Counted from the first letter of the stretch, positions 3,949-27,929 are shown. The stretch: DNA of 64,000 bases from Candidatus Yanofskybacteria bacterium RIFCSPHIGHO2_01_FULL_44_24 (GCA_001794215.1 MGJK01000012.1:80818-144817); one strand, 5' to 3'. Program-made: numbers and translations. The notes: generated by a model not told the origin, from the sequence alone.

Positions 3949-4605
3949 ATGGTTAATAAAGAAAAATTAGGCGAGCCGATTGGGGTTGGCGGGGAGAAAA
4001 AAGTATACCAAGACCCGAAAAACCCTGATCGAGTAGTGGGAATTTTTAGAGAGCATATCGAAGAAACGCCCAATCAGATTAAAGCTCGATTTTATCTTAC
4101 AAAAATCCTGCACCTCTTATTTCCCAAAAATATCCCCGACATGCATTGGGCCGGAAGTGAGCCTAATGCATATCAGGCAGATAGAAAAGAGCACGACGAA
4201 AGGCATGCCACATTACGAGATTATGTGTTGTCCGGGGAGGGCGATAAATATATAGGTATGTCCGTTGAGGTCAAGAAAGACTTAGAAAGAAAAGCGGACG
4301 ACGCTTTCCAGGAGCATATAAAAGATAAGGATGTAAGAAGTTTCGTAGATAGGTTGGATGAATTAGGGATCAGGTCAACCGATATGGCATCAGTTAACTT
4401 TTCGAAAGACCCCGGGGGTAACGTCTTATATCTCGATACTTTTTATGTCTGGAAAAGGAACATGTATGACAGGCTCCAATTATTTTGTGATTTCGATAAA
4501 TTAGAGAACGCATTTGCGCAGTTGCCAGAGGCCGATCGGGCGAAGGCCAAGAATTATTTATCACGATTGAAAAAACTTTATGAGGAAGAAAGTAATTCCA
4601 AATAA
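3949..4605 (+). CDS. Hypothetical protein
   Basis: 218-aa ORF with no recognisable motif. It sits tightly packed between secA and the epimerase gene. Confidence 0.4.
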   Translation: MVNKEKLGEPIGVGGEKKVYQDPKNPDRVVGIFREHIEETPNQIKARFYLTKILHLLFPKNIPDMHWAGSEPNAYQADRKEHDERHATLRDYVLSGEGDKYIGMSVEVKKDLERKADDAFQEHIKDKDVRSFVDRLDELGIRSTDMASVNFSKDPGGNVLYLDTFYVWKRNMYDRLQLFCDFDKLENAFAQLPEADRAKAKNYLSRLKKLYEEESNSK

Positions 4606-5584
4606 TTTCTCTAATTATACAAAAGATGCCATGGGAAGTAATAAAATAAAAGTGGTTGTTACCGGCGGAGCCGGATTTATCGGCTCTAATTTAGTTGATG
4701 CCTTGGTAGGCGAAGGCTTTGATGTCCATGTGATTGATAATCTATCGAATGGAAAAAGGGGGAATGTAAATAAGAAGGCTCAACTGCATATTCAGGATAT
4801 TGCTGATATTAAAAACATCCAGCCGATAATAAACGGCGCCGAATATGTTTTTCATTTAGCGGCACTGCCTCGGGTTCAGTATTCCATCGAGAACCCCATC
4901 GAAAGCGATACGGCTAATGTAAGGGGGACGTTGAATGTCCTGGTTGCCTCTAAGAATGCCGGCGTAAAAAGAGTTATATATTCGGCCTCAAGCTCTGCCT
5001 ATGGCGACCAAAAGAAAATGCCACTCAAAGAGACAATGACCCCTTCTCCCAAAAGCCCCTACGGACTTCAAAAATATATTGGCGAATTATATTGTAAACT
5101 ATGGAGCGAAATTTATGGCTTACCGACTGTTTGTTTGCGCTACTTTAACGTTTACGGTCCTCGCCAGAATTCAGAAGGAGCCTATGCGCTTGTGATTGCT
5201 AAGTTTTTTAAGCAGTTATCCGGCGGTAAACCGATGACGATAACGGGCGACGGAAAACAAACCAGGGACTTCACGAGCGTCCATGATATTGTTCGGGCAA
5301 ATATTTTGGCTATGAAAAGCAATAAGGTGGGCAGGGGAGAGTCTATTAATATCGGGGCCGGCAGGAACCAGTCGATAGATGAAATAGCCCGGCTAATCGG
5401 CGGACCTAAGAAATATATTTCAGCCCGGCTGGAACCTCATGACACTTTAGCCGACAACTCTTTGGCCCAACAACTTTTAGGCTGGAGGCCGAAGGTTAGT
5501 ATTGAAGATGGGATAGAAGAATTAAAGAGCCACCCCTGTCTGTGCGGTTCTATGGAAAAGTTTAAAGAGTGTCATGGGATATAA
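4580..5584 (+). CDS. NAD-dependent epimerase/dehydratase (UDP-sugar 4-epimerase-like) with an appended C-terminal SEC-C metal-binding motif
   Basis: Rossmann motif VVVTGGAGFIGSNLVDAL and the YxxxK catalytic region (SPYGLQKYIGE). The final 17 residues, HPCLCGSMEKFKECHGI, match the SEC-C CxCGSxxK[FY]KxCHG motif. Confidence 0.85.
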   Translation: MRKKVIPNNFSNYTKDAMGSNKIKVVVTGGAGFIGSNLVDALVGEGFDVHVIDNLSNGKRGNVNKKAQLHIQDIADIKNIQPIINGAEYVFHLAALPRVQYSIENPIESDTANVRGTLNVLVASKNAGVKRVIYSASSSAYGDQKKMPLKETMTPSPKSPYGLQKYIGELYCKLWSEIYGLPTVCLRYFNVYGPRQNSEGAYALVIAKFFKQLSGGKPMTITGDGKQTRDFTSVHDIVRANILAMKSNKVGRGESINIGAGRNQSIDEIARLIGGPKKYISARLEPHDTLADNSLAQQLLGWRPKVSIEDGIEELKSHPCLCGSMEKFKECHGI

Positions 5585-11142: not shown

Positions 11143-11598
11143 ATGACAAAATATCAAAAAATTTCGATGTTCTTTCTACGGTTATCTATCGGTTGGCTGA
11201 TGTTTTATGCTGGTATAACTAAGGTCATCAATCCCGATTGGTCGGCGGCCGGATATTTGAAGGGAGCCAAGATGCTCACGGGATTTTACGGATGGCTTAT
11301 CAGTCCCGGAATTCTTCCCGGTTTGAATTTTGTAAACGAATGGGGACTGACCTTGCTTGGTGTATCCCTGATTTTAGGAGTCGGAGTGCGTTTAAGTTCG
11401 GTTTTGGGCGCAATCCTGATGTTACTTTATTACTTGCCCCTTGGACTTCCTTATCCTAATCCCCATTCACTTATAGTCGACGAGCATATCATTTACATGT
11501 TTGTTTTACTCATGTTTGCTACCTATCGTGTCGGGCGAGTCTGGGGATTGGATAGTAAACTCTCGAATTATTCAAGCTTTTTTGCTAAGCTTGGATAG
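11143..11598 (+). CDS. DoxX-family membrane protein
   Basis: LRLSIGWLMFYAGITK plus hydrophobic helices. Confidence 0.55.
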   Translation: MTKYQKISMFFLRLSIGWLMFYAGITKVINPDWSAAGYLKGAKMLTGFYGWLISPGILPGLNFVNEWGLTLLGVSLILGVGVRLSSVLGAILMLLYYLPLGLPYPNPHSLIVDEHIIYMFVLLMFATYRVGRVWGLDSKLSNYSSFFAKLG

Positions 11599-12056
11599 TG
11601 AAAAAGAAAGTTTTAACACTCTGTCTGATTCATCAACATCCCAATCTTTTGCTTGGAATGAAGAAGAGGGGTTTTGGGGTGGGAAAATGGAATGGATTCG
11701 GGGGCAAAGTTGAGCCTGGCGAGGAGATAGAGGATGCCGTTTATAGGGAGGTCTGGGAAGAAGCCGGAGTGAAGATTGCCGGAGCCGAAAAGGTCGGTCA
11801 TATTAATTTTAAATTCGCAGGAGAGCCCGAAGCGCTTGAGGTACATATTTTTAAAGCCGGCAGTTTCAGCGGAGAGCCTCGGGAGAGCGACGAGATGAAG
11901 CCTCAGTGGTTTCATATTGACGAAATACCCCTTGATCAAATGTGGTCGGATGACAAGATTTGGCTGCCGTTATTTTTGGCCGGTAAAAAATTCAAAGGCG
12001 AGTTTTTCTTTGAAGGACATGATAAAATTTTAGAACATAAATTGGAGTTGATTTAG
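11598..12056 (+). CDS. NUDIX hydrolase, MTH1 (NUDT1)-like oxidised-purine nucleotide pyrophosphatase
   Basis: LLGMKKRGFGVGKWNGFGGKVEPGEEIEDAVYREVWEEAG is a NUDIX box. Whole-length similarity to MTH1-type enzymes, including the conserved DEMKPQWF and DDKIWLPLFL blocks. The true start is probably at the internal Met (MKKRGFG). Confidence 0.8.
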   Translation: MKKKVLTLCLIHQHPNLLLGMKKRGFGVGKWNGFGGKVEPGEEIEDAVYREVWEEAGVKIAGAEKVGHINFKFAGEPEALEVHIFKAGSFSGEPRESDEMKPQWFHIDEIPLDQMWSDDKIWLPLFLAGKKFKGEFFFEGHDKILEHKLELI

Positions 12057-13078
12057 TGAATAAGAATAAAAAGAAAATTGTTGTTGCTATATCCGGTGGG
12101 ATGGACCCTATTCATATCGGGCATATTAGGCTTATTCAGGAAGCGAGAAGGCTTGGCGATAAATTAGTGGTGATTTTAAATAACGATAATTGGCTTAAAA
12201 AAAAGAAAAGACATATTTTCATGCACCAGAAAGAGAGAAAAGAAGTCCTTGAGTCAATCGAGGGGGTCGATCAGGTCGTCTTGACCAGTCATCCCCGGAA
12301 CCCTAAGGATATGAGCGTGTCTCGGGAGCTACTGAAGATCAAACCGGATATTTTTGCCAATGGCGGAGACAGAAAGGGCGAGAACGATATACCGGAGGTC
12401 GGAGTATGCAACAGGATCGGCTGTACGATGGCTTTCAATGTTGGTCGGGGCGGGAAGATCCAGTCCAGTTCCTGGCTCTTAAGCAGGTACGTGAGCAAGC
12501 TTAAGCCGGTACGCAGGCTCAAGGTTAAAAAGATTCTTGAGGAACTGAAGATAGCTCTCGGTAAATCCAATGTAAAATTGTCATTAGTCCTGAAACTCAA
12601 AGCCGCCAAGATCATGCTTAAGCTTATGAATAAGAAAACTGGATTCGGCCTTTTTGTTATTTTGGGGTGGCAGAATAAGTGGCGAAGCCATACCGATTTG
12701 CCCGACTCGGTCCAGGATATTTACGTAGAACATCCGCATAATATTTTAAAAGCATATCGGACGGGCAAATATAATATAGAAACTACCATCAATTTTGACG
12801 GCGCTATTCTGATAGATGCAAGGGGGAATATCATTCATTCAGGGATAATCATCGAAGGTTTAAAGCCTCGGTCAGCGGCTGATAAAATAAATCCGGGAAA
12901 GTTCAAGGACTTATCTGAGCAGTTCGGTTTCAGAAAAAAGGTGCATTCACGCCACCTCTCGGCCATTACGGCCTCATATATTTTTAAAGGTACGACCGTT
13001 ATGACCGTTTCCGAAGAAACAAACTCTTTTCATGTATTTGAAAACGGGCGCATAGCGTATAGAATGTATGATGAATAA
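12056..13078 (+). CDS. Fusion protein: cytidylyltransferase-like (HxGH) nucleotidyltransferase domain plus diadenylate cyclase (DAC/DisA_N) domain
   Basis: N-terminus: VVAISGGMDPIHIGHIRLIQEA (HxGH) ... GGDRKG. C-terminus: FDGAILIDARGNIIHSGIII ... SRHLSAITAS ... TVMTVSEETNSFHVFENG, matching the DAC motifs DGA / (T)RHR / VSEETG. Confidence 0.65.
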   Translation: MNKNKKKIVVAISGGMDPIHIGHIRLIQEARRLGDKLVVILNNDNWLKKKKRHIFMHQKERKEVLESIEGVDQVVLTSHPRNPKDMSVSRELLKIKPDIFANGGDRKGENDIPEVGVCNRIGCTMAFNVGRGGKIQSSSWLLSRYVSKLKPVRRLKVKKILEELKIALGKSNVKLSLVLKLKAAKIMLKLMNKKTGFGLFVILGWQNKWRSHTDLPDSVQDIYVEHPHNILKAYRTGKYNIETTINFDGAILIDARGNIIHSGIIIEGLKPRSAADKINPGKFKDLSEQFGFRKKVHSRHLSAITASYIFKGTTVMTVSEETNSFHVFENGRIAYRMYDE

Positions 13079-13505
13079 ATCAACGGAACAGAACCAGCAA
13101 CCTAAGGTCGGCATCGGGGTAATGATATTCAAGGATGGCAAGGTGCTGTTGGGCAAAAGAAAAGGATCGCACGGAGCGGGGGAGTATTCTTTTCCCGGAG
13201 GGCATCTTGATTACATGGAATTTTTCGCCGAATGTGCAAGGCGGGAAACATTAGAGGAATGCGGGATAGAAATTCAAAATATCCGCTTTCAGTTTTTAGC
13301 GAATGAAAAACTTTATGCTCCCAAGCACTATACCCACATCGGCCTTACTGCCGATTGGAAAAGCGGCGAGCCGAAAGTCCTTGAGCCTAATAAGTGTGAA
13401 TCCTGGAGCTGGTATGAGGTAGAAAAACTGCCGAGCCCCCTTTTTGATACTTGCCGTTTGGCCATCGACAGTTATTTAAATAATAAAAATTATTACGATG
13501 AATAG
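13068..13505 (+). CDS. NUDIX hydrolase
   Basis: GHLDYMEFFAECARRETLEECGIE NUDIX box. It overlaps the neighbouring genes by a few nucleotides, indicating an operon. Confidence 0.8.
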   Translation: MMNKSTEQNQQPKVGIGVMIFKDGKVLLGKRKGSHGAGEYSFPGGHLDYMEFFAECARRETLEECGIEIQNIRFQFLANEKLYAPKHYTHIGLTADWKSGEPKVLEPNKCESWSWYEVEKLPSPLFDTCRLAIDSYLNNKNYYDE

Positions 13506-14469
13506 CCTATCTGAGGCCAAGAAAATAAAAATTGTTTGTTTTGGCGGAGGAACCGGGATGCCTTCGCTTCTTTCCGGCTTAAAACATAATCCATGGCTGG
13601 ATATTGCGGCGGTCGTAAATATGTTTGATACCGGCGGGAGTTCGGGGGAGTTAAGGGATCGATTCGGCATTCTTCCTCCCGGTGATATCCTGAAATGCCT
13701 TTTAGCTTTATCTGAGGACGATGCCGTCGCCCGGAAAATTCTGCTTAAACGGATCAGTCACAATTCTTATCCCGGCCACACCGGAGGCAATCTTCTTTTG
13801 CTTGGCTTAGAGAAGGTCTACGCCAACTATCAGGAGGCGGTGGACTCATTAGCCCAGATTCTTTCGGTGAAGGGCCGCGTGCTACCGGTTACATTGGCTG
13901 ATGCGACTTTGTGTGGAAAATTCAAGGACAAGACCGTCTATAAAGGCGAAACAAGTATTGATGTCGGGATATTCGAAGGCAGAGAGGTCGACGAGTTATT
14001 CTTAGAGCCTGCGGTGAAGGCATCGTCTCAGGCGTTGAAAGCAATACGCGACGCCGATGTTATGTGTATCGGGCCGGGCAGTTTCTATACCAGCGTCCTG
14101 CCGAATTTTCTTCCGGTCGGAATAAAAGAAGCCATCAAAAAATCTAAAGCGCCTATCATATTTACCTCTAATCTTTTGACCGAAGGCATGGGGATGCGCG
14201 GGTTTACATTGGACAAAATAGTCAAAGTCTTAGAACGGTATACGGGCCGGAGAATTAATGCGGCGATTGCAAACAAGAAATTGCCCAGCCGGGATGTGTT
14301 GGATAAATACGCCCAGGAAAGAAAGCATCCCATCGTCATTAAAAATAAAATTAAGGGTACGAAGCTTATTAGAGCCGACCTCTGGATTGATACGGCCATT
14401 GCCCGCCATGATTCTATGCGTTTGTCGAATCTGATATTCGGAACAATTCACCGGCTTCTCAAAAAATAA
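13498..14469 (+). CDS. YvcK/CofD-like (UPF0052) gluconeogenesis-factor family protein
   Basis: KIVCFGGGTGMPSLLSGLK ... VVNMFDTGGSSGELRDRFGILPPGDI signature. Confidence 0.85.
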   Translation: MNSLSEAKKIKIVCFGGGTGMPSLLSGLKHNPWLDIAAVVNMFDTGGSSGELRDRFGILPPGDILKCLLALSEDDAVARKILLKRISHNSYPGHTGGNLLLLGLEKVYANYQEAVDSLAQILSVKGRVLPVTLADATLCGKFKDKTVYKGETSIDVGIFEGREVDELFLEPAVKASSQALKAIRDADVMCIGPGSFYTSVLPNFLPVGIKEAIKKSKAPIIFTSNLLTEGMGMRGFTLDKIVKVLERYTGRRINAAIANKKLPSRDVLDKYAQERKHPIVIKNKIKGTKLIRADLWIDTAIARHDSMRLSNLIFGTIHRLLKK

Positions 14470-14494: not shown

Positions 14495-15136
14495 ATGGAT
14501 TCAGAAAATAACCAAAACCAACTCGACGCGGCAAAAGAAGCTTTTTCCCGCAGAGAACAGAAAAATAGGGAAGCCGCCGCCAGAAGGAGAAAGAAGACTT
14601 TGAAGAAAGCGGTTGTTTGGGCTGTTTTAATCTTAGCTATATTTCTGGTCGTCTTTATTTCTTCTAAGAATGAAACTACTCAAGAACCGACTAATTCCGC
14701 AGAGCAGTTTTTCGCGGCTCAAAATCGGGACCATATCAAGGTCGGGGAGTCTCATCCGGCATATAACTCCGATCCACCGACGGGCGGATGGCACTACGAT
14801 CAGCCGGTCCAGTCGGGGATATATGATAAGGAATTTCCAGACGAACAGCTTATACATAACTTAGAGCATGGACACGTTTGGATTTCCTATCGGGCAGATT
14901 TGGATCAGGAAAGCATAGAGAAGCTTGCCGATATTGCGAAGGATTTCGGATCCAAAATCGTTATGACCCTAAGATCAAAGAACGATACCAAAATAGCATT
15001 AGCATCATGGGAATATCTTCTCAAAATGGATACGGTAGACGAGGCCGCGACAAATGAATTCATCAAAGATCACCGCGGGCGCGGCCCGGAGAATATAGTG
15101 GATTTCGGATTTAAGGATTTCCGAACCACGAAGTAA
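14495..15136 (+). CDS. Membrane-anchored DUF3105-like protein
   Basis: N-terminal K/R-rich segment then a transmembrane helix. SHPAYNSDPPTGGWHYDQP...LIHNLEHGHVWISY resembles DUF3105. Confidence 0.45.
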   Translation: MDSENNQNQLDAAKEAFSRREQKNREAAARRRKKTLKKAVVWAVLILAIFLVVFISSKNETTQEPTNSAEQFFAAQNRDHIKVGESHPAYNSDPPTGGWHYDQPVQSGIYDKEFPDEQLIHNLEHGHVWISYRADLDQESIEKLADIAKDFGSKIVMTLRSKNDTKIALASWEYLLKMDTVDEAATNEFIKDHRGRGPENIVDFGFKDFRTTK

Positions 15137-15181
15137 TCGAGCTATCTCGGTGAACCTGTCAGACGCACCGTTTGACTAACG

Positions 15182-16501
15182 GTGCTTTTTGTAGTACCTT
15201 CTGGCCGAGAACCTTTACATTCGGGGTGGACAATGAAGAAGGTCAGTGTCGGTATCCTGAAGAACGGAATGCGTTTCTATACTCAGGGCGACCCCAGCTC
15301 AAACGTTTCGGGTATCGGCGTTAAGTGCGGTTCTATGCATGATCCGCCTGGCTGTGTCGGGCTTGCTCATCTTGTGGAACATATGCTCTGCAGAGAATCC
15401 AGGGATTTTCCGGGACTGTCAGTGGACTTAATGATGGAGAAATATATGGGCGGGCCCGATGCCGATATTAACGTCAGGATCGATCGTTCGAGCACTTTTT
15501 ACGGCCACGATTCGATTCTGTACCGCCAGCATATGCTGGAGTGCTTCAATATGTATGCCAGTCTTCTCAAGGACAAGACAACCAATATGGAAGCTCTTCA
15601 GTTGGAATCCGCGGCGGTCCATCAGGAATATTATCTTTACGGCATAGATTACATCCCCAACTTGGTGGATGATCTGATTCACGAGGTGATGTACGATCGA
15701 AATCCGGCAAGAAACAGAGTTGATTGCAGGCCGGAAGATCTGTCTGCCATAAATCTTCAGCGGGTTTCTTCCTTTGTCAGGAAGTATTATGTGCCGTCAA
15801 ATATGTTCATTGTGTTGCTCGGACCGAGCTTCCATGATTCCAAAAAGATGGTTGAACGGCTGTTCGGAAGATTGCCTCAAGTTGAAAGCCCCAAGCTTGA
15901 TCTCGATTTGAGCGAAAGATTCCCAAACCTTACGCACACTCGGTCTTTGGAGATTGAAAGGCCCGGGATTCACCAATACCATCTTGGGATCGGTTTTCCG
16001 ACCGAAACATACTTGAGTAAAGACGCTGAAGCGTTAGATACCTTATCCCGGATCCTTGCTTTCAGGGTAAAACTAAAGCTGCGCGAAGGTAATCGGGATT
16101 TCAATAAGGGTGTTTATCGAGCCCTCTCCTATACTCCAAGGACTTTTGCTCACGGCCTGATCTATGTGTCTGTCGCCACGACCAGCGCCGAATTTATCAG
16201 AGAAGCTGAAGAGACGATCATCTCTGAGTGTAAGAGATTAAGGGAAGAGCCTGTGAGCAGTGAAGAGCTCGAGGCTATGACCCGAAGCCTCCTGTACTCT
16301 TATCGCAACGCCTTTATTAAGTCTCCGGGAGTCTTGTCGGAACTTATTATCGAATCAGTTTGCAACGGCGATGAGGACCTGATTCACCTCCATTCTTTCA
16401 GGGATCGTTTGAGAAAAGTCACCCGAAGGAAAATCATGGAGGTTGCCAATAAATACTTCTGCCTGCCCAATTACGGCAGAGTATTGATAAAGCCCACATA
16501 G
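15182..16501 (+). CDS. M16 (pitrilysin/insulinase) family zinc peptidase
   Basis: The inverted zinc motif HxxEH (GLAHLVEHMLC) sits near the N-terminus, in a two-domain protein of about 420 aa. The likely start is the internal MKKVSVG around 15233. Confidence 0.7.
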   Translation: MLFVVPSGREPLHSGWTMKKVSVGILKNGMRFYTQGDPSSNVSGIGVKCGSMHDPPGCVGLAHLVEHMLCRESRDFPGLSVDLMMEKYMGGPDADINVRIDRSSTFYGHDSILYRQHMLECFNMYASLLKDKTTNMEALQLESAAVHQEYYLYGIDYIPNLVDDLIHEVMYDRNPARNRVDCRPEDLSAINLQRVSSFVRKYYVPSNMFIVLLGPSFHDSKKMVERLFGRLPQVESPKLDLDLSERFPNLTHTRSLEIERPGIHQYHLGIGFPTETYLSKDAEALDTLSRILAFRVKLKLREGNRDFNKGVYRALSYTPRTFAHGLIYVSVATTSAEFIREAEETIISECKRLREEPVSSEELEAMTRSLLYSYRNAFIKSPGVLSELIIESVCNGDEDLIHLHSFRDRLRKVTRRKIMEVANKYFCLPNYGRVLIKPT

Positions 16502-16541: not shown

Positions 16542-17276
16542 ATGCCTAAACTCCAAAATACTCTTAAAATCTCGCGGAGCGGGTTGAAATTGTTTCTTGA
16601 ATGTCCAAGATGTTTTTGGCTTGATGTAAGACACAAGATCAAACGGCCTCCCGGATATCCTTTCACACTTTCTATAGCCGTGGACTATTTGGTCAAAAAG
16701 GAATTCGACGTTTATCGAGAAAAGGGTCAGTTGCCTCCGGTTTTGAAAAAGTTCGGTATCAAAGATGCGGTACTTTATAATGGCGAGCACCTATCCGAGT
16801 GGCGCAATAATTTTAAGGGCGTTGCTTATTGGAACGAAGAACTGAACGCCATACTATACGGAGCGGTCGATGATGTCCTGGAGTTTTCGGATGGTTCTCT
16901 GGGTGTAATTGATTACAAATCTTCCGGGGCCCGGGAAATTACTATCTACGATGATTATCAGAAGCAGATGGATGTTTATAATTATATTTTGAATCAAAAA
17001 GGTTTTCAGACTTATCCTGAGGCATTCTTCGTTTTTTATAAAGTCATTAAGGAAGGGGAGTCCGGGTTTTACAACGCTCTCAAATTTACCGAGGAAGTCA
17101 GGCCGGTTAAGGTCAATTCCGGCTGGGTCGAGTCTGTTTTCGAACAGGCCGTTGCGACGGCCCGCTCTGAAACTTCTCCCGGGCCCGGCACGGGCGGGAA
17201 AAATGGCCACTGTGATCATTGTCATTTCGTAGAGATGGCCATGACGCACAAGATTAACCCTGATTCCAATGAGTAA
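16542..17276 (+). CDS. PD-(D/E)XK nuclease, Cas4/RecB-like, with Cys cluster
   Basis: N-terminal ECPRCFWL. Core motifs D...VIDYKSSG...QMDVYNY. C-terminal GHCDHCHF, a four-Cys arrangement like Cas4 Fe-S nucleases. Confidence 0.6.
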   Translation: MPKLQNTLKISRSGLKLFLECPRCFWLDVRHKIKRPPGYPFTLSIAVDYLVKKEFDVYREKGQLPPVLKKFGIKDAVLYNGEHLSEWRNNFKGVAYWNEELNAILYGAVDDVLEFSDGSLGVIDYKSSGAREITIYDDYQKQMDVYNYILNQKGFQTYPEAFFVFYKVIKEGESGFYNALKFTEEVRPVKVNSGWVESVFEQAVATARSETSPGPGTGGKNGHCDHCHFVEMAMTHKINPDSNE

Positions 17277-17288
17277 TCAAAAGACCGC

Positions 17289-17744
17289 CTAAGAGGCGGT
17301 CTGGTCTTTCTTTGCGTAAAGCCGGTCTATGGTTTCTTGGCTTATGTTTGTGAGCTTAAGGCGGTTGCTGAAGTTCATGATTGGCCGAGGAGCTATTATC
17401 GAGAGGATAGCGAGGGGTATTGAGAATAAGCCGACGAGCGTACAGATCGTGAAAATTGCCATAGCGGGAGCGAAATTCAGGAAGTCGGGAGAAACCTTGC
17501 CTATCAAGCCGGTTAAAATAAAAAATCCCATCATCGGCAAATAGCAGAGAAGTAGGTACGAAAGAAAGTTCCCAAAATAATTCAGGTCTTTCCTTACCCA
17601 GTCCCAACCGGGATTGCTCGGTCCTATCCATGTCGATAGTTCTGCCGCAACCAATTTGGGCAGGCGATTAGTTACGATTTTTCTCATCATCTGAATATAA
17701 AAAATTCCGATTATCAGGTATAGAACGTTCAGAAGGAATAGCAT
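17289..17744 (-). CDS. Polytopic membrane protein, hypothetical
   Basis: 151 aa with four predicted transmembrane helices. Confidence 0.45.
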   Translation of the reverse strand: MLFLLNVLYLIIGIFYIQMMRKIVTNRLPKLVAAELSTWIGPSNPGWDWVRKDLNYFGNFLSYLLLCYLPMMGFFILTGLIGKVSPDFLNFAPAMAIFTICTLVGLFSIPLAILSIIAPRPIMNFSNRLKLTNISQETIDRLYAKKDQTAS

Positions 17745-19645: not shown

Positions 19646-21211
19646 ATGACGGGGCTTTTTATTTTTCAGGAAGTAAATTTCTCGGCGGCTTTAAAGCATC
19701 ATCTTCATCATCTTTCCAAGTGCAGAATTTTTATATACAATTGGCTTATGTCTAAACTTAAATTAACGGGTGACCATTTTTATAAATTTTTCCAGTGTCC
19801 TCATTGGATTTGGTACGATATCTACGGCGAAGCCAAAAAGAGGAGGGAAGCTCCGCCTCTGTTAGAGATGATTTATAAGGGCAAGGTTGCACAGGCTAAT
19901 CAAACTCTGGGCCAGCATAAAAAATTCGAAGAGGTTAAGCCGGAACTTTTGCGTGATTTGGACGAGGGTTTTTTGGCTACCTTAGAGCTTATGAAAAAGG
20001 GAAAAAATATATATCACGGAGTTTTGATGAGCGAAAATTGGGTCGGGATGCCGGATCTTCTTGAGGCAAGGCCCGGTAAGTCGGATCTTGGCGATTGGTA
20101 TTATGTTGTCTACGACGTTAAAAGCTCTCTCGATCTAAGCGATGAGTACAAGTTTCAGCTTATTTTTTACAGTTTGATACTTGAGCGTCTTCAGGGCGTG
20201 AGGCCGAAGGAGGCTTATGTCATAGATGCCGAAGGCACCGAAAGGGCGTTTGCGATTGATGATTATATCGATCAATTCCATCTGACTCGTCAGCAGATAG
20301 AGAAAATTCTTGACGGTGAAAAGCCCGCCCCATTTCTAAAGAGCGGCTGTAAAAGAACTCCTTGGTATTCTCTTTGTATTTCCGAGACTGAGGGCTGTGA
20401 CGACGTTTCGCTTATATACAAGATCAGCCAAGCCGATCAGAGGCGTCTTTATGAGGTGGGAGTCAAAACAGCTCACGATATGGCCGATGCCGATGTCAAC
20501 CAGCTTCAGGCTAAATTGGAAGACTGGCCTTTTGATAAAATTATCAGGTTCAGCAATCAGGCCAAGTGCCTGATAAGTCAGGAGCCCAAAATTTTAAGAA
20601 AGCCCAATTTTCCCGACGTAGCCCACGAAATTTATTTTGATATTGAGAGCGACCCCACTCGGGATATAGATTATTTGCTCGGTTTTGTTATAAAAAGTAA
20701 AACAAGCCCCGAGGAAGTTAAGTACGAGTATTTTTTTGCCAATGATAAAAGCGAAGAGCCGGAGATGTGGAGAAAGTTCTTAGATTTTTTGGCTGGCTTG
20801 GATAATTTCGTCATCTACCACTATGCGTTTTACGAAAGGCAGGTTTTCGATCGCTTAGCTCTTCGTTACGGTGCCCCCACTACATTAATAAATAAATTCA
20901 AAGATAATACGATCGACCTTCATCTCAAATTAGTTGATTCAGCCGTTCTGCCGCTGTACTTCTATGGTCTCAAAGATGTTGCCGGATACTTGGGGTATAA
21001 ATGGGATAATCCCGAGGCGGGAGGAGCGGAGTCTGTTGTCTGGTATAATGACTGGCTTGATAAAAAGGACCTGCCTGACCGGCAGGCAGGCGATGCGATC
21101 CTCAAGAAGATTTTAAAATACAACGAAGACGATGTCCGGGCCACCTTGCTGATTAAAGAATGGCTCTCTTCTCAAAAACCATCCAAGCATAAGGAGAGCT
21201 TAGACGAGTAG
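19646..21211 (+). CDS. TM0106-family RecB-like PD-(D/E)XK nuclease with a C-terminal RNase-H-like (exonuclease-like) domain
   Basis: N-terminal FFQCPHWIWYD Cys motif. VYDVKSSLDLSDEYKFQLIFYSLILE (D..K PD-(D/E)XK). C-terminal IYFDIESDP...DYLLGF. The likely start is the internal MSKLKLTGD. Confidence 0.65.
   Translation: MTGLFIFQEVNFSAALKHHLHHLSKCRIFIYNWLMSKLKLTGDHFYKFFQCPHWIWYDIYGEAKKRREAPPLLEMIYKGKVAQANQTLGQHKKFEEVKPELLRDLDEGFLATLELMKKGKNIYHGVLMSENWVGMPDLLEARPGKSDLGDWYYVVYDVKSSLDLSDEYKFQLIFYSLILERLQGVRPKEAYVIDAEGTERAFAIDDYIDQFHLTRQQIEKILDGEKPAPFLKSGCKRTPWYSLCISETEGCDDVSLIYKISQADQRRLYEVGVKTAHDMADADVNQLQAKLEDWPFDKIIRFSNQAKCLISQEPKILRKPNFPDVAHEIYFDIESDPTRDIDYLLGFVIKSKTSPEEVKYEYFFANDKSEEPEMWRKFLDFLAGLDNFVIYHYAFYERQVFDRLALRYGAPTTLINKFKDNTIDLHLKLVDSAVLPLYFYGLKDVAGYLGYKWDNPEAGGAESVVWYNDWLDKKDLPDRQAGDAILKKILKYNEDDVRATLLIKEWLSSQKPSKHKESLDE
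21070..21090. repeat. GC-rich near-palindrome cctgcctg(a)ccggcaggcagg, copy inside a coding region
   Basis: 21-nt in-frame copy encoding DLPDRQAG in the nuclease gene. 20-nt perfect-palindrome copies occur at 29631-29650 and 51709-51728. Confidence 0.8.
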
Positions 21212-24810: not shown

Positions 24811-26055
24811 GTGGTTTTCTCTCTTACTCTCGATATTTTAAAAGCAGCTTTTTCTCTACTCGCCTATTTTTGGTGGCTTTATCTGCCGATTCTTTTGTTG
24901 CTGGCCGTAATCGGTGTTTTTGAATTTCATAATCAACTCAGATATTTTCAGGGACTAAAATGGGTTCTCCTGGAAATGAAATTTCCGAAGGACCTGCACC
25001 GAAGTCCCAAAGCTTTTGAGCAGGTCTTTGCCGGTCTTCACGCGATCACCATACCTATTAAATGGTGGGAGAAGATTTTTGTAGGGAAAATACCGGACTG
25101 GTTTTCTTTTGAGCTGGTCGGAGTAAGCGGAGAATCTCATTTTTATGTAAGGACTCTGGAGCAGTTTAAAAATTTGGTTGAGGCTCAGGTTTATGCCCAG
25201 TATCCCGAAGCCGAGATTGTGGTAGCTTCGGATTACATGGACGAACTGCCGACATATCTGCCGGATCATAAGTATGATCTTTGGGGTTCTGAATTGATTC
25301 TTGAGAAAGAAGATGCCTATCCGATAAGAACCTATCCTGAGTTTGAAGAAAAAGCGGTTGCGAAGGAAGATATCAGGCGCATCGACCCCTTGGCTTCGAT
25401 AGTGGAGCTAATGAGCATGCTCGAGTATGGCGAGAGGATTTTCGTTCAGTTTATCGTCCGGCCTTCCGGCGATGAGTGGGTAAAGAAGGCGGAGGCGGTA
25501 ATTGACAAGATCATGGGTAAAAAGCCCAAGGCCTCCAAGGAGAGTTTGGCCTCTAAGATAGTTTTTGGCATTGATCGAGCGATAACCGGACCGGGAGGGG
25601 GAACGGAAACTCCCAAGGAAGAGAGGCGGGCGGATCTTAGTCCCGGCAAGCAGGAGGCGCTTAAGGCGATCGAAAAGAGCATCGCCAAGATCGGTTATTA
25701 TACCGGTATCAGGTTTATGTATATAGCTCCCCGCGAATCTTATCATCGGGCTCATGTCGCGGGAATTTTGGGTACTTTCAAGCAGTTTTCTACTCATAAT
25801 TTAAACGGATTCAAGATGAACAAGCCCACCCGAACAATGACAAAGGGTTTATTCAAAAAAAGCAGAGAGTATAGAAAGAAAATGTTTTTATTCAGGAACT
25901 ATGCTACCAGGAAGAAGCCGCTCAAGGAGTTTGTTTTAAATATTGAAGAGTTAGCGACGATTTACCATTTTCCGGATGTTGGAGTGCGGGCGCCGTTATT
26001 GCCCCGCGTTGAAGCGAAAAAGGGAGAGCCGCCGGTTGGTTTGCCTACAATATAG
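24811..26055 (+). CDS. Membrane-anchored hypothetical protein (two N-terminal transmembrane helices plus a roughly 350-aa soluble domain). A possible membrane partner or split N-terminus of the downstream ATPase.
   Basis: Hydrophobic N-terminus LLAYFWWLYLPILLLLAVIGVF with no recognisable catalytic motif. Lies 83 nt upstream of the T4CP-like ATPase gene. Confidence 0.4.
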   Translation: MVFSLTLDILKAAFSLLAYFWWLYLPILLLLAVIGVFEFHNQLRYFQGLKWVLLEMKFPKDLHRSPKAFEQVFAGLHAITIPIKWWEKIFVGKIPDWFSFELVGVSGESHFYVRTLEQFKNLVEAQVYAQYPEAEIVVASDYMDELPTYLPDHKYDLWGSELILEKEDAYPIRTYPEFEEKAVAKEDIRRIDPLASIVELMSMLEYGERIFVQFIVRPSGDEWVKKAEAVIDKIMGKKPKASKESLASKIVFGIDRAITGPGGGTETPKEERRADLSPGKQEALKAIEKSIAKIGYYTGIRFMYIAPRESYHRAHVAGILGTFKQFSTHNLNGFKMNKPTRTMTKGLFKKSREYRKKMFLFRNYATRKKPLKEFVLNIEELATIYHFPDVGVRAPLLPRVEAKKGEPPVGLPTI

Positions 26056-26138: not shown

Positions 26139-27929
26139 ATGCCAGACAATGACGAACAATTAATAGTACTTGGTGAAACCAACTTCAGAAACCACAGGTC
26201 TCGTTTCGGAATAAAGACCGACGATCGGAGGCGCCATATGTATGTCGTCGGTTCAACCGGCATGGGCAAGTCGGAATTTTTGAAGAATATGGCCATTCAG
26301 GACATTGAAGCCGGCCATGGCGTGGCGTTTATCGATCCTCACGGCGATCCGTCCAACGACCTTCTCGATCATATACCCGCCCATAGAATCAAAGACGTTA
26401 TTTATTTCGACCCCGGAGACTTAGAGTACCCGATTGCATTCAATGTGATGGAGGGCGTCGGTTTTGATTACCGTCATTTGGTAGCCAGCGGTTTGGTCGG
26501 AGTATTCAAAAAAATATGGGGAGTTGAGGCGTGGTCCGGAAGAATGGAATATATTCTTAACAATACCATCTTGGCTCTCTTGGAGTATCCGGATTCTACC
26601 TTATTAGGAATAAACCGGCTGATGTCGAATAAAGAATACCGCAAGAAAGTCGTTTCTTCGCTCAAGGACCCGATCGTAAAAGGGTTCTGGGTGGAGGAGT
26701 TCGCAAAGTATGCCGATAAGTTCGCCACAGAAGCTACGGCCGCCATTCAGAATAAAGTCGGTCAGTTCTCTTCCAACAATCTGATCAGGAACATCATTGG
26801 CCAGTCAAACTCCAAATTAGATATCAGGAAAATAATGGATGAGGGGAAAATCCTCATTGCCAACGTTTCGCGGGGTAAAATAGGAGAAGACGCCTCCCGT
26901 CTTTTAGGAGCCTTCTTGGTCACCAAGATCCAGTTAGCGGCTATGTCCCGGGTTGATATTCCTGAGAACAAAAGGCGCGACTTTTATCTTTATGTCGACG
27001 AATTTCAGCACTTTGCCACGGAATCATTCGCCAACATTCTTTCCGAGGCGAGAAAATTCCATTTAAGCCTGACCATGGCCCATCAGTATATCAAACAGAT
27101 GGAAGAGCCGGTCAGGGATGCCGTTTTCGGCAACGTCGGAACCATCGTGACATTCAGAGTCGGAGCGGAGGACGCTGAATTTTTAGAAAAATGGTTTGCT
27201 CCGGATTTTATGATGGCGGATATAGTGAATCTTGGAAAATACAATATATATCTCAAGCTGATGATAGACGGAATTTCATCAAAGGGTTTTTCGGCTGCCA
27301 CTCTGCCGCCTTTTCCCCCGATGGATAAGAGCAATCGGGAAGCAATCATTGATTATTCCCGAAAGAATTACGGAACGCCGCGGGCCGAGGTTGAGGCCGG
27401 TATCGCCGAATGGGCCGGGATGCTTGAGTCCAAAACCGAGCAGGCAAGAGACGACAGACCGCGCCAATTTCGCGACGACAACAGGTCGGCGCAGAGATTT
27501 GATGACAGACCGCGCGCTCCTCGCTCAAACTACGACGCAGGGAGCAGATATGATAATGGTCCCAGGGATTTTCGTCGCGACGACAGAAGCGGCGGAGGAC
27601 AGGTCCGCGATATAAACAGAGATTTTTCTATTCAACAGCGGGCGCCGGCACCTCAGAAATTTCCGGATAGGCCTCCGGTTCAGCCAAGGCAGCCTATTGC
27701 ACAGCCTATGCCCGAAAGAAAACCCGAGCCAAAATTAGAACTAAAACCGGATTTGCCCAAACCGAAACCATCCGGCCTCTCTTTGGACGAAACTTTAAAA
27801 TCCGGGCCGGTTAATTTCAGGGGCCAAAAAATAGAACCTCGACAGCCCAAAGAAAAGAAAGAGGTTGATACGGGGGAATTGAGGAAGATCTTAGAGGGAA
27901 TGGGCAAGAAGGAGGAACAGAGCGGATAA
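26139..27929 (+). CDS. Type IV coupling protein-like P-loop ATPase (TraD/TraG/VirD4 family-like) with a long disordered R/D- and P-rich C-terminal tail
   Basis: Walker A VVGSTGMGKSEF and Walker B FYLYVDEFQHFA. IYFDPGDLEYPIAFNVME resembles the DP...NPL block of coupling proteins. The C-terminal approximately 170 aa are RDD/RD repeats then PxP-rich. No transmembrane segment. Confidence 0.55.
   Translation: MPDNDEQLIVLGETNFRNHRSRFGIKTDDRRRHMYVVGSTGMGKSEFLKNMAIQDIEAGHGVAFIDPHGDPSNDLLDHIPAHRIKDVIYFDPGDLEYPIAFNVMEGVGFDYRHLVASGLVGVFKKIWGVEAWSGRMEYILNNTILALLEYPDSTLLGINRLMSNKEYRKKVVSSLKDPIVKGFWVEEFAKYADKFATEATAAIQNKVGQFSSNNLIRNIIGQSNSKLDIRKIMDEGKILIANVSRGKIGEDASRLLGAFLVTKIQLAAMSRVDIPENKRRDFYLYVDEFQHFATESFANILSEARKFHLSLTMAHQYIKQMEEPVRDAVFGNVGTIVTFRVGAEDAEFLEKWFAPDFMMADIVNLGKYNIYLKLMIDGISSKGFSAATLPPFPPMDKSNREAIIDYSRKNYGTPRAEVEAGIAEWAGMLESKTEQARDDRPRQFRDDNRSAQRFDDRPRAPRSNYDAGSRYDNGPRDFRRDDRSGGGQVRDINRDFSIQQRAPAPQKFPDRPPVQPRQPIAQPMPERKPEPKLELKPDLPKPKPSGLSLDETLKSGPVNFRGQKIEPRQPKEKKEVDTGELRKILEGMGKKEEQSG

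Follow-up and report, generated by a model that had tools for sequence, protein, structure and literature searches.

A nucleotidyltransferase fused to a divergent diadenylate cyclase-fold domain in Yanofskybacteria-type Parcubacteria

Signalling by cyclic di-AMP (c-di-AMP) is essential in many bacteria. The diadenylate cyclases (DAC, Pfam PF02457) include five classical classes, namely DisA, CdaA, CdaS, CdaM as well as DacZ/CdaZ, which carry various accessory domains (HhH; three transmembrane helices; two helices only; one transmembrane helix; PK_C-like), and none of these classes has a cytidylyltransferase-like N-terminal domain. Mutagenesis of DGA and of RHR as blocks has shown that both motifs are needed for cyclase activity (PMC3328451; PMC13022847), and the first arginine of RHR is essential on its own (bioRxiv 10.1101/2022.03.11.483894). 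In Firmicutes CdaA, together with CdaR, is physically coupled to GlmM, an enzyme of nucleotide-sugar and envelope precursor synthesis (PMC8573169, PMC6368335). The present analysis concerns a gene of Candidatus Yanofskybacteria bacterium RIFCSPHIGHO2_01_FULL_44_24 in which a nucleotidyltransferase domain and a divergent DAC-fold domain are joined in one protein of 340 residues. The gene lies in a stretch of 64,000 nucleotides (GCA_001794215.1, MGJK01000012.1:80818-144817), hereafter the window, the features of which are collected in Table 1. As claimed in the original prediction, which was made from the sequence alone, the protein stands outside the five classes, to which the comparison extended: its N-terminal partner belongs to PF01467, and their accessory domains are not matched, the stalk alone being CdaS-like. 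Compared with DisA, CdaA, CdaM and DacZ, it moreover lacks the second arginine of RHR and scores below the Pfam gathering threshold. The likeness to CdaA–GlmM resides in the presumed coupling of a DAC-like domain to a putative precursor enzyme; there, however, the partner is a phosphoglucosamine mutase held in a non-covalent complex, whereas here it is a nucleotidyltransferase linked by covalent fusion or encoded by an adjacent gene. Another regulator of the UDP-N-acetylglucosamine (UDP-GlcNAc) pathway, YvcK/GlmR, is encoded close to the fusion in the window, which recalls the same coupling.

Analysis of the N-terminal half places it among the HxGH nucleotidyltransferases. It matches PF01467 (CTP_transf_like) with an E-value of 2.1e-13 and TIGR00125 above its cut-off, and presents the HxGH and C-terminal ISxT/SSS motifs as well as the Rossmann-like fold of the family. 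The best specific models are rfaE_dom_II, corresponding to HldC/RfaE domain II (D-glycero-beta-D-manno-heptose-1-phosphate adenylyltransferase; structure 5x9q), with 68.8 bits for a cut-off of 181.5, and TagD (glycerol-3-phosphate cytidylyltransferase; structures 1coz and 2b7l), with 58 bits for a cut-off of 165.4; in contrast to both enzymes, the domain is fused to a DAC-like module. Scores so far under the equivalog cut-offs point to a distinct subfamily next to HldC and TagD, for which the models assign neither a nucleotide nor an acceptor. Comparison by sequence with solved structures retrieves TagD (1coz, 2e-10) and 3glv (3e-10). Residues H20 and H23 of the HxGH motif, D44, K50, R61 and S138/S139 are invariant in 30 homologues; the first five align to H14/H17, D38, K44 and R55 of TagD, which we take to be its catalytic residues, and the two serines fall on the SSS motif in 3glv. 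The domain thus looks catalytically competent, and the invariance of these positions argues against a non-catalytic N-terminal half, a possibility that had been left open when the fusion was first noticed.

The C-terminal half consists of a two-helix stalk and a domain with the alpha/beta fold of the DAC family. The stalk always accompanies the DAC-like domain and forms the N-terminus of its stand-alone and split-gene forms, the stand-alone proteins beginning approximately 35–60 residues ahead of the domain. This is the layout of CdaS (YojJ/DacB), the sporulation-specific enzyme of Bacillus (structure 2fb5), which is the nearest described protein in layout, with a sequence identity of about 16% and an alignment spanning 147 residues. 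By its sequence, the fusion best resembles a DAC of the CdaS type to which a transferase of the HldC/TagD type has been attached; CdaS itself has no such partner, has a canonical RHR and lies above the Pfam threshold, whereas the clade described below has RH-x and an insert of about 15 residues before RH. The Pfam DAC match covers residues 241–332 of the fusion and positions 46–118 of the 119 in the profile (20.6 bits, E-value 3.5e-4). All 19 homologous C-terminal domains scanned matched DAC, ahead of every other family by a wide margin (best E-value 1.5e-7), and several members of the clade exceed the Pfam threshold, with 37.5, 30.6, 29.4 and 30.9 bits. A profile built from 35 diverse members of the clade and compared with the PDB returns diadenylate cyclases only as its top 16 hits (best E-value 8.2e-5), in keeping with the DAC family membership expected in the original prediction. 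In this comparison LS..FGF..VGTRHlSAI...TLSEETG of the clade aligns to L(S/T)E..GISKEFGTRHRAAIGLS...VVSEETG of the solved enzymes.

The motifs by which the fusion was first recognized are all present in the protein. Two of them are strictly kept, F-D248-G-A-I-L and T-V-S319-E-E being invariant in 30 homologues, the latter aligned to VVSEETG of the CdaA-type structures. The third is altered, as had been noticed from the start: in place of GTRHRxA the protein has HS-R299-H300-L301-SA, with the first arginine and the histidine kept, a serine ahead of RH where most relatives have a threonine, and a leucine that is invariant in the fused clade. Two invariant residues, K295 and H297, are candidates for taking the place of the missing arginine. 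Among the 35 aligned members, the mean identity of which is 24%, D-G-A, R-H and the VSEE serine belong to the columns with at least 90% conservation, a pattern that would be expected of an active site rather than of a scaffold. The clade-specific insert before the RH motif (INPGKF.DLSEQFGF) is also highly conserved. The tyrosine that stacks on adenine in CdaA-type enzymes is absent from the clade; since DisA and CdaS lack it as well (PMC6368335), its loss is not disqualifying. With the fold, the DGA motif, the serine and part of the RHR motif present, and with a sub-threshold Pfam score and an incomplete RHR, the C-terminal half is best filed, on this comparison, as a divergent DAC-fold relative and not as a demonstrated diadenylate cyclase.

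The fusion is found in many other genomes. The homologue search gave about 1100 hits, and at least 120 full-length homologues of 324–352 residues, with 62–77% identity, were recovered from NCBI, JGI, ENA and Logan assemblies; the window protein itself occurs, 100% identical, on 13 contigs. An assembly chimera, one of the worries attached to the original prediction, is ruled out by these numbers. A species-level scan with one genome per GTDB species yielded 47 loci, 20 of which have the fusion (Yanofskybacteria and relatives) and 25 the C-terminal module alone, in proteins of about 187–235 residues (Azambacteria, Wolfebacteria, Paceibacterota and others), so that the module must have a function of its own. 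In the two remaining loci the halves are adjacent separate genes (L032, 662-1114 and 1114-1671; L038, 4147-4608 and 4620-5183), which brings to 22 the species where they are fused or adjacent. A frameshift artefact can be discarded for this pair, because in both genomes the break falls at the same linker position and consists of a clean stop and an ATG start; the two halves there appear to be the same pair of genes in unfused form.

Searching 1.84 billion representative sequences with a profile of the C-terminal domain (hmmsearch) identified 103 proteins at E-values up to 1e-3, 50 of them at 1e-10 or better, nearly all of 180–260 residues. DGA is largely kept in these relatives, and the RHR region reads (G/H)(T/S)RH-x, where x stands for L, I, T, S, C, H, Y or another residue. 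Distant members (P0161, P0171), all annotated as hypothetical, come from Woesearchaeota and other archaeal metagenome-assembled genomes (MAGs), and the RH-x clade thus spans bacteria of the candidate phyla radiation (CPR) and DPANN archaea. Both are lineages of ultra-small episymbionts. In three proteins of about 335 residues from three independent assemblies (P0131, P0349 and P0350), the same stalk and DAC-like module, 42% identical to the C-terminal half of the window protein, are fused to a NUDIX domain. At L056 a sigma-70 family gene lies downstream of such a gene (61-1068). The NUDIX motif of these proteins presumably resembles that of Ap4A-hydrolase/NUDT2-type enzymes, and their NUDIX domain belongs to another subfamily than the two NUDIX proteins of the window (BLASTP E-values of 0.013 and 2e-4). 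In public databases the fused protein is named "hypothetical" or "adenylyltransferase/cytidyltransferase family protein", and some members of the clade bear the JGI label "DisA with diadenylate cyclase activity". These names, together with the Pfam scores below threshold that make the DAC-like half effectively invisible, suggest that the fused form has been overlooked so far.

Some taxon labels met in this survey are odd. Several contigs that bear the CPR-type gene in its stand-alone form go under the names Gammaproteobacteria, Acutalibacteraceae, Vicinamibacterales or Methylomirabilis (L030, L036, L037, L040, L043, L051), and "uncultured Candidatus Saccharibacteria" is the label of many contigs that are Yanofskybacteria-like. 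Mistakes of binning or labelling in public MAGs are the probable cause.

The occurrence of the fusion in 20 species, the two genomes with adjacent split genes and the strong sequence conservation speak for a functional link between the two halves. The best explanation, which we regard as about evenly balanced between right and wrong, is that the fusion would be a nucleotide enzyme, bifunctional or coupled, which is specific to Parcubacteria of the Yanofskybacteria type. Its N-terminal half would be an active nucleotidyltransferase of the HldC/TagD class, converting a nucleoside triphosphate (NTP) and a phosphorylated compound X into NMP-X and pyrophosphate, X being probably a sugar- or polyol-phosphate destined for the cell envelope. 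The C-terminal half, as a member of the small divergent CPR/DPANN clade with its two-helix stalk, would bind a purine NTP and, in a face-to-face (head-to-head) dimer, make a 3'-5' linked cyclic dinucleotide, for which c-di-AMP is the default candidate. By analogy with other DACs, where the N-terminal domain controls the C-terminal cyclase, and with CdaA–GlmM in Firmicutes, we infer that occupancy or activity of the nucleotidyltransferase could gate the cyclase, and the messenger output would then be tied to the state of the pool of nucleotide-activated precursors.

Several observations weigh against such a coupled enzyme. On the N-terminal side, the domain lies outside the HldC/RfaE-II and TagD equivalogs as delimited by the NCBIfam cut-offs. 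On the C-terminal side, the Pfam gathering score of 27 bits is reached neither by the full-length protein nor by the isolated domain (23.8 bits); solved DACs are reached only at E-values of about 1e-4 even by the broad 35-member profile; and when narrow profiles were compared with PDB sequences, the full-length one found no DAC and that of the C-terminal domain only 8ofg, at an E-value of 0.89. The GTRHRxA motif is incomplete, the canonical RHR being present in one of the 103 relatives and the second arginine missing from the other 102, and the conserved insert could alter substrate or chemistry. No c-di-AMP riboswitch was found over the 64 kb, where Rfam at its gathering threshold returns one tRNA only, and no c-di-AMP receptor or phosphodiesterase was identified within the visible part of the genome. 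Gut Patescibacteria have moreover been reported to be devoid of DACs (PMC12901056). Concerning the second arginine, the literature that we searched contained no single-mutant data. A precedent in favour of the coupled enzyme is a DisA of Ca. Acetothermum with GTRHLTA, described as "partially conserved" (PMC10086821).

Table 1. Coordinates, in the window, of the gene block, of the domains and motifs of the fusion protein, and of the terminator-like hairpin
Feature	Position	Strand	Remarks
DoxX-family membrane protein	11143-11598	+	Pfam DoxX 3.1e-07; first gene of the tight block
NUDIX-1, MTH1/NUDT1-type NUDIX hydrolase	11598-12056	+	152 aa; Pfam NUDIX 1.7e-15
Fusion gene (nucleotidyltransferase + DAC-like)	12056-13078	+	340 aa
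N-terminal domain, HldC/RfaE-II/TagD-class HxGH nucleotidyltransferase (predicted)	12056-12505	+	aa 1-150
HIGH motif	12113-12124	+	aa 20-23
NNDNWLKKKK motif	12179-12208	+	N-terminal domain
NGGDR motif	12359-12373	+	aa 102-106
IQSSSW motif	12458-12475	+	N-terminal domain
Helical linker	12506-12634	+	aa 151-193; helices 157-169 and 177-193 from AF2 secondary structure
Divergent DAC-fold domain	12635-13078	+	aa 194-340
GFGLF	12641-12655	+	DAC-like domain
FDGAIL (DGA)	12794-12811	+	aa 247-252
Family-specific insert + DLSEQFGF	12908-12931	+	DAC-like domain
HSRHLSA (RHR -> RHL)	12944-12964	+	aa 297-303
VSEE (catalytic Ser)	13007-13018	+	aa 318-321
NUDIX-2, NUDX1/NUDT15-like NUDIX hydrolase	13068-13505	+	145 aa; Pfam NUDIX 1.2e-17
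YvcK/GlmR-family (CofD-related) UDP-GlcNAc-binding protein	13498-14469	+	323 aa; TIGR01826 254.9 bits; Pfam CofD 3.4e-68
DUF3105 protein	14495-15136	+	Pfam DUF3105 5.7e-31; hydrophobic stretch at N-terminus
Terminator-like hairpin, then T-run	15165-15185	+	8 pairs, 5 GC; TTTTTG tail

In the window the fusion gene stands between two NUDIX genes, the second of which is followed by yvcK, and these four genes overlap as originally described (by 1, 11 and 8 nt, from the coordinates of the open reading frames (ORFs)). The stop of the DoxX gene also overlaps the start of NUDIX-1 by 1 nt, and the tight block therefore begins at least one gene earlier. Four overlaps in a row are tighter than the average of the window, yet the genome is compact and strand-biased, with 12 of the 56 same-strand junctions overlapping and 59 of the 69 genes on the plus strand, so that overlap alone argues modestly for a functional operon. 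The GC skew is uniformly positive over all 64 kb and its cumulative curve climbs monotonically; together with the strand bias, this places the window inside one replichore, its genes co-oriented with replication. As the first convincing terminator-like hairpin follows the DUF3105 gene, a transcription unit running from DoxX through NUDIX-1, the fusion, NUDIX-2 and YvcK to DUF3105, probably its final gene, is likely; the terminator candidates come from a consensus scan only, in which the number of sites is not above that of shuffled sequences. The sites of a promoter scan of the window were not enriched over shuffles either, and were left unused.

NUDIX-1 is 59% identical to zebrafish NUDT1 (5otn) over 148 ungapped residues (E-value 2.5e-58; about 1e-52 for human MTH1) and possesses the Nudix box, so that the striking full-length resemblance to MTH1/NUDT1 on which the original prediction insisted is real. 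That a Nudix protein of the CPR should be this close to a vertebrate enzyme is an observation in its own right; the family counts 4186 homologues at E-values up to 1e-10 across Patescibacteria, named 8-oxo-dGTP/2-OH-dATP diphosphatase. NUDIX-1 is thus a lineage-wide housekeeping gene of Patescibacteria, and its product a probable diphosphatase of oxidised purine NTPs. NUDIX-2 resembles, among PDB entries, Arabidopsis NUDX1 (6dby, 1.8e-27) and NUDT15 (about 3e-24), and both NUDIX proteins, to judge from these relatives, look like sanitisers of the nucleotide pool. The fourth gene was correctly recognized as YvcK, a bona fide member of TIGR01826 with a score well over the cut-off of 196 bits.

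Conservation of this neighbourhood is limited. Among the 20 fused species, NUDIX-1 adjoins the fusion in three (L009, L012, L015), YvcK in two (L010, L015) and NUDIX-2 in none, nor was an adjacent NUDIX-2-type gene seen in the 55 loci examined. All cases of a neighbouring NUDIX-1 or YvcK belong to the closest clade (70–73% identity), where one or both stand next to the fusion in four of eight loci, in addition to the window; DoxX is also upstream in L010. Such adjacency is missing in 16 of the 20 species with the fusion, as it is at every one of the 27 loci where the module is stand-alone or split, and the four genes together do not form a conserved neighbourhood across the fused species. The genes that do recur, in the window as well, encode SecA, HPF, DsbA, VKOR, an M16 peptidase, PDDEXK_1, RNase_H_2 and SecDF, and constitute a synteny backbone. 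Clustering of the neighbourhoods of the 27 loci gave no partner in more than four of them and no functional clue from the context. In the window NUDIX-1, NUDIX-2 and YvcK are probably co-transcribed with the fusion, but as lineage-specific, non-obligatory neighbours. A reading as a defence system was also tried and rejected: PADLOC matched neither the fusion nor YvcK nor DUF3105, and gave the two NUDIX genes no more than a generic NUDIX candidate model.

Other explanations of the fusion have to be weighed against a coupled enzyme. The DAC-like domain might be dead, or repurposed as a nucleotide-binding or oligomerisation module that serves the nucleotidyltransferase, and rarely a NUDIX enzyme, with no second messenger produced. 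We consider this unlikely, although much of it would follow naturally from the degradation of RHR to RH-x throughout the clade, from the sub-threshold Pfam score and from the attachment of the module to two different nucleotide enzymes, as would befit a regulatory domain. DAC domains do form defined oligomers (PMC8573169), and the RHR-to-AAA triple mutant of M. tuberculosis DisA has lost both its activity and its ATP binding (PMC3328451). The published inactivating mutations, however, hit all three residues or the first arginine, which is intact here; what has been kept at such low overall identity is a set of catalytic residues (DGA, RH and the serine) rather than a surface patch; and the commonest architecture is the stand-alone form with two helices only, which often leaves no partner in cis to be regulated. 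An active domain with another product is improbable: it would make a linear or mixed-base dinucleotide, or 3'-adenylylate the NMP-X released by the nucleotidyltransferase in a two-step pathway that handles an NDP-X compound. The conserved insert, the lost second arginine and the missing stacking tyrosine could all be accommodated in this way; the alternative fusion partner, NUDIX, cleaves NDP-X, the class of compound that the nucleotidyltransferase would make; and the recurrence of the MTH1-type neighbour, like the 22 species with fused or adjacent halves, would fit. Against it stand the stand-alone forms, which have no adjacent nucleotidyltransferase, the different subfamily of the NUDIX domain in the rare fusion and the speculative nature of the chemistry. 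To our knowledge, moreover, no DAC-fold enzyme has a product other than c-di-AMP.

A dedicated four-gene operon, in which the DAC would make a signal for the NUDIX pair to destroy, with YvcK as effector, corresponds to the synthesis and degradation module first imagined for this locus, and appears very improbable. Its appeal lies in the tight overlaps uninterrupted by a good terminator, in the recurrence of NUDIX-1 or YvcK at half of the close loci, in the existence elsewhere of a NUDIX-DAC-like fusion and in the bearing that, in Firmicutes, YvcK/GlmR as well as c-di-AMP have on UDP-GlcNAc metabolism (PMC8573169 for CdaA–GlmM). The module is not supported by the survey of neighbourhoods: most fused species and all the other loci do without the adjacency, the NUDIX-2 neighbour is unique to the window, NUDIX-1 is far more widespread than the fusion (compare 4186 with about 1100 hits), and this genome has many overlapping junctions. 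Nor can the NUDIX genes be its degradation arm: Nudix hydrolases cleave the pyrophosphate links of NDP-X compounds, and c-di-AMP and pApA have none, so that these enzymes cannot degrade c-di-AMP. The known c-di-AMP phosphodiesterases are of other types, namely DHH-DHHA1, HD and AtaC. The AtaC type has been described (PMC7132281). A looser tie of the DAC-like module to NDP-X metabolism is possible, since the nucleotidyltransferase would make NDP-X, Nudix enzymes break it and a NUDIX fusion exists.

c-di-AMP signalling is essentially unexplored in the CPR, and the literature searched yielded no paper in which diadenylate cyclases are connected with Parcubacteria or the CPR. A broader proposal, which we advance tentatively as possible but doubtful, is that the stand-alone, nucleotidyltransferase-fused and NUDIX-fused proteins form an unrecognised CPR/DPANN branch of the DACs, marked by RH-x and the extra loop, which would be either the missing c-di-AMP synthase wired to envelope precursors or a cyclase or ligase with a new product. 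Either outcome would bring second-messenger signalling to Parcubacteria and give the DACs a sixth architecture, one fused to an enzyme. If the DAC-like domain is active, organisms of the CPR and DPANN would gain a second messenger, the second arginine of the textbook RHR motif would be dispensable, and the fusion would provide a natural covalent case of a cyclase coupled to metabolism of the nucleotide-sugar type. If it is inactive, the DAC fold would have been recruited as a regulatory module.

Other genes of the window deserve mention. Downstream of the fusion locus, a PD-(D/E)XK nuclease gene (16542-17276) is kept in 17 of the 47 loci, and a gene for a protein of the RNase_H_2 superfamily with a weak Cas4-like N-terminal region (19646-21211) in eight of the 47. 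Between the nuclease gene, on the plus strand, and a convergent gene on the minus strand (17289-17744) lies a GC-rich hairpin (17282-17302), its 9 bp perfectly paired and with T-runs on each strand, which looks like a bidirectional terminator. The gene upstream of SecA (238-759) codes for a small protein that matches the PaaX central, Cas2-like domain (1.4e-22), and it occupies the same position in L007. Just downstream of SecA, an NAD-dependent sugar epimerase/dehydratase resembling GDP-mannose dehydratase (4580-5584; 2.7e-61) apparently ends, as SecA does, in a weak SEC-C zinc-binding motif (E-value 5e-4). Finally, a HerA/TrwB-like ATPase gene (26139-27929; DUF87, with weak hits to type IV coupling proteins) adjoins an unannotated ORF of 414 residues (24811-26055), and the two may be the remnant of a DNA-transfer or uptake machinery.

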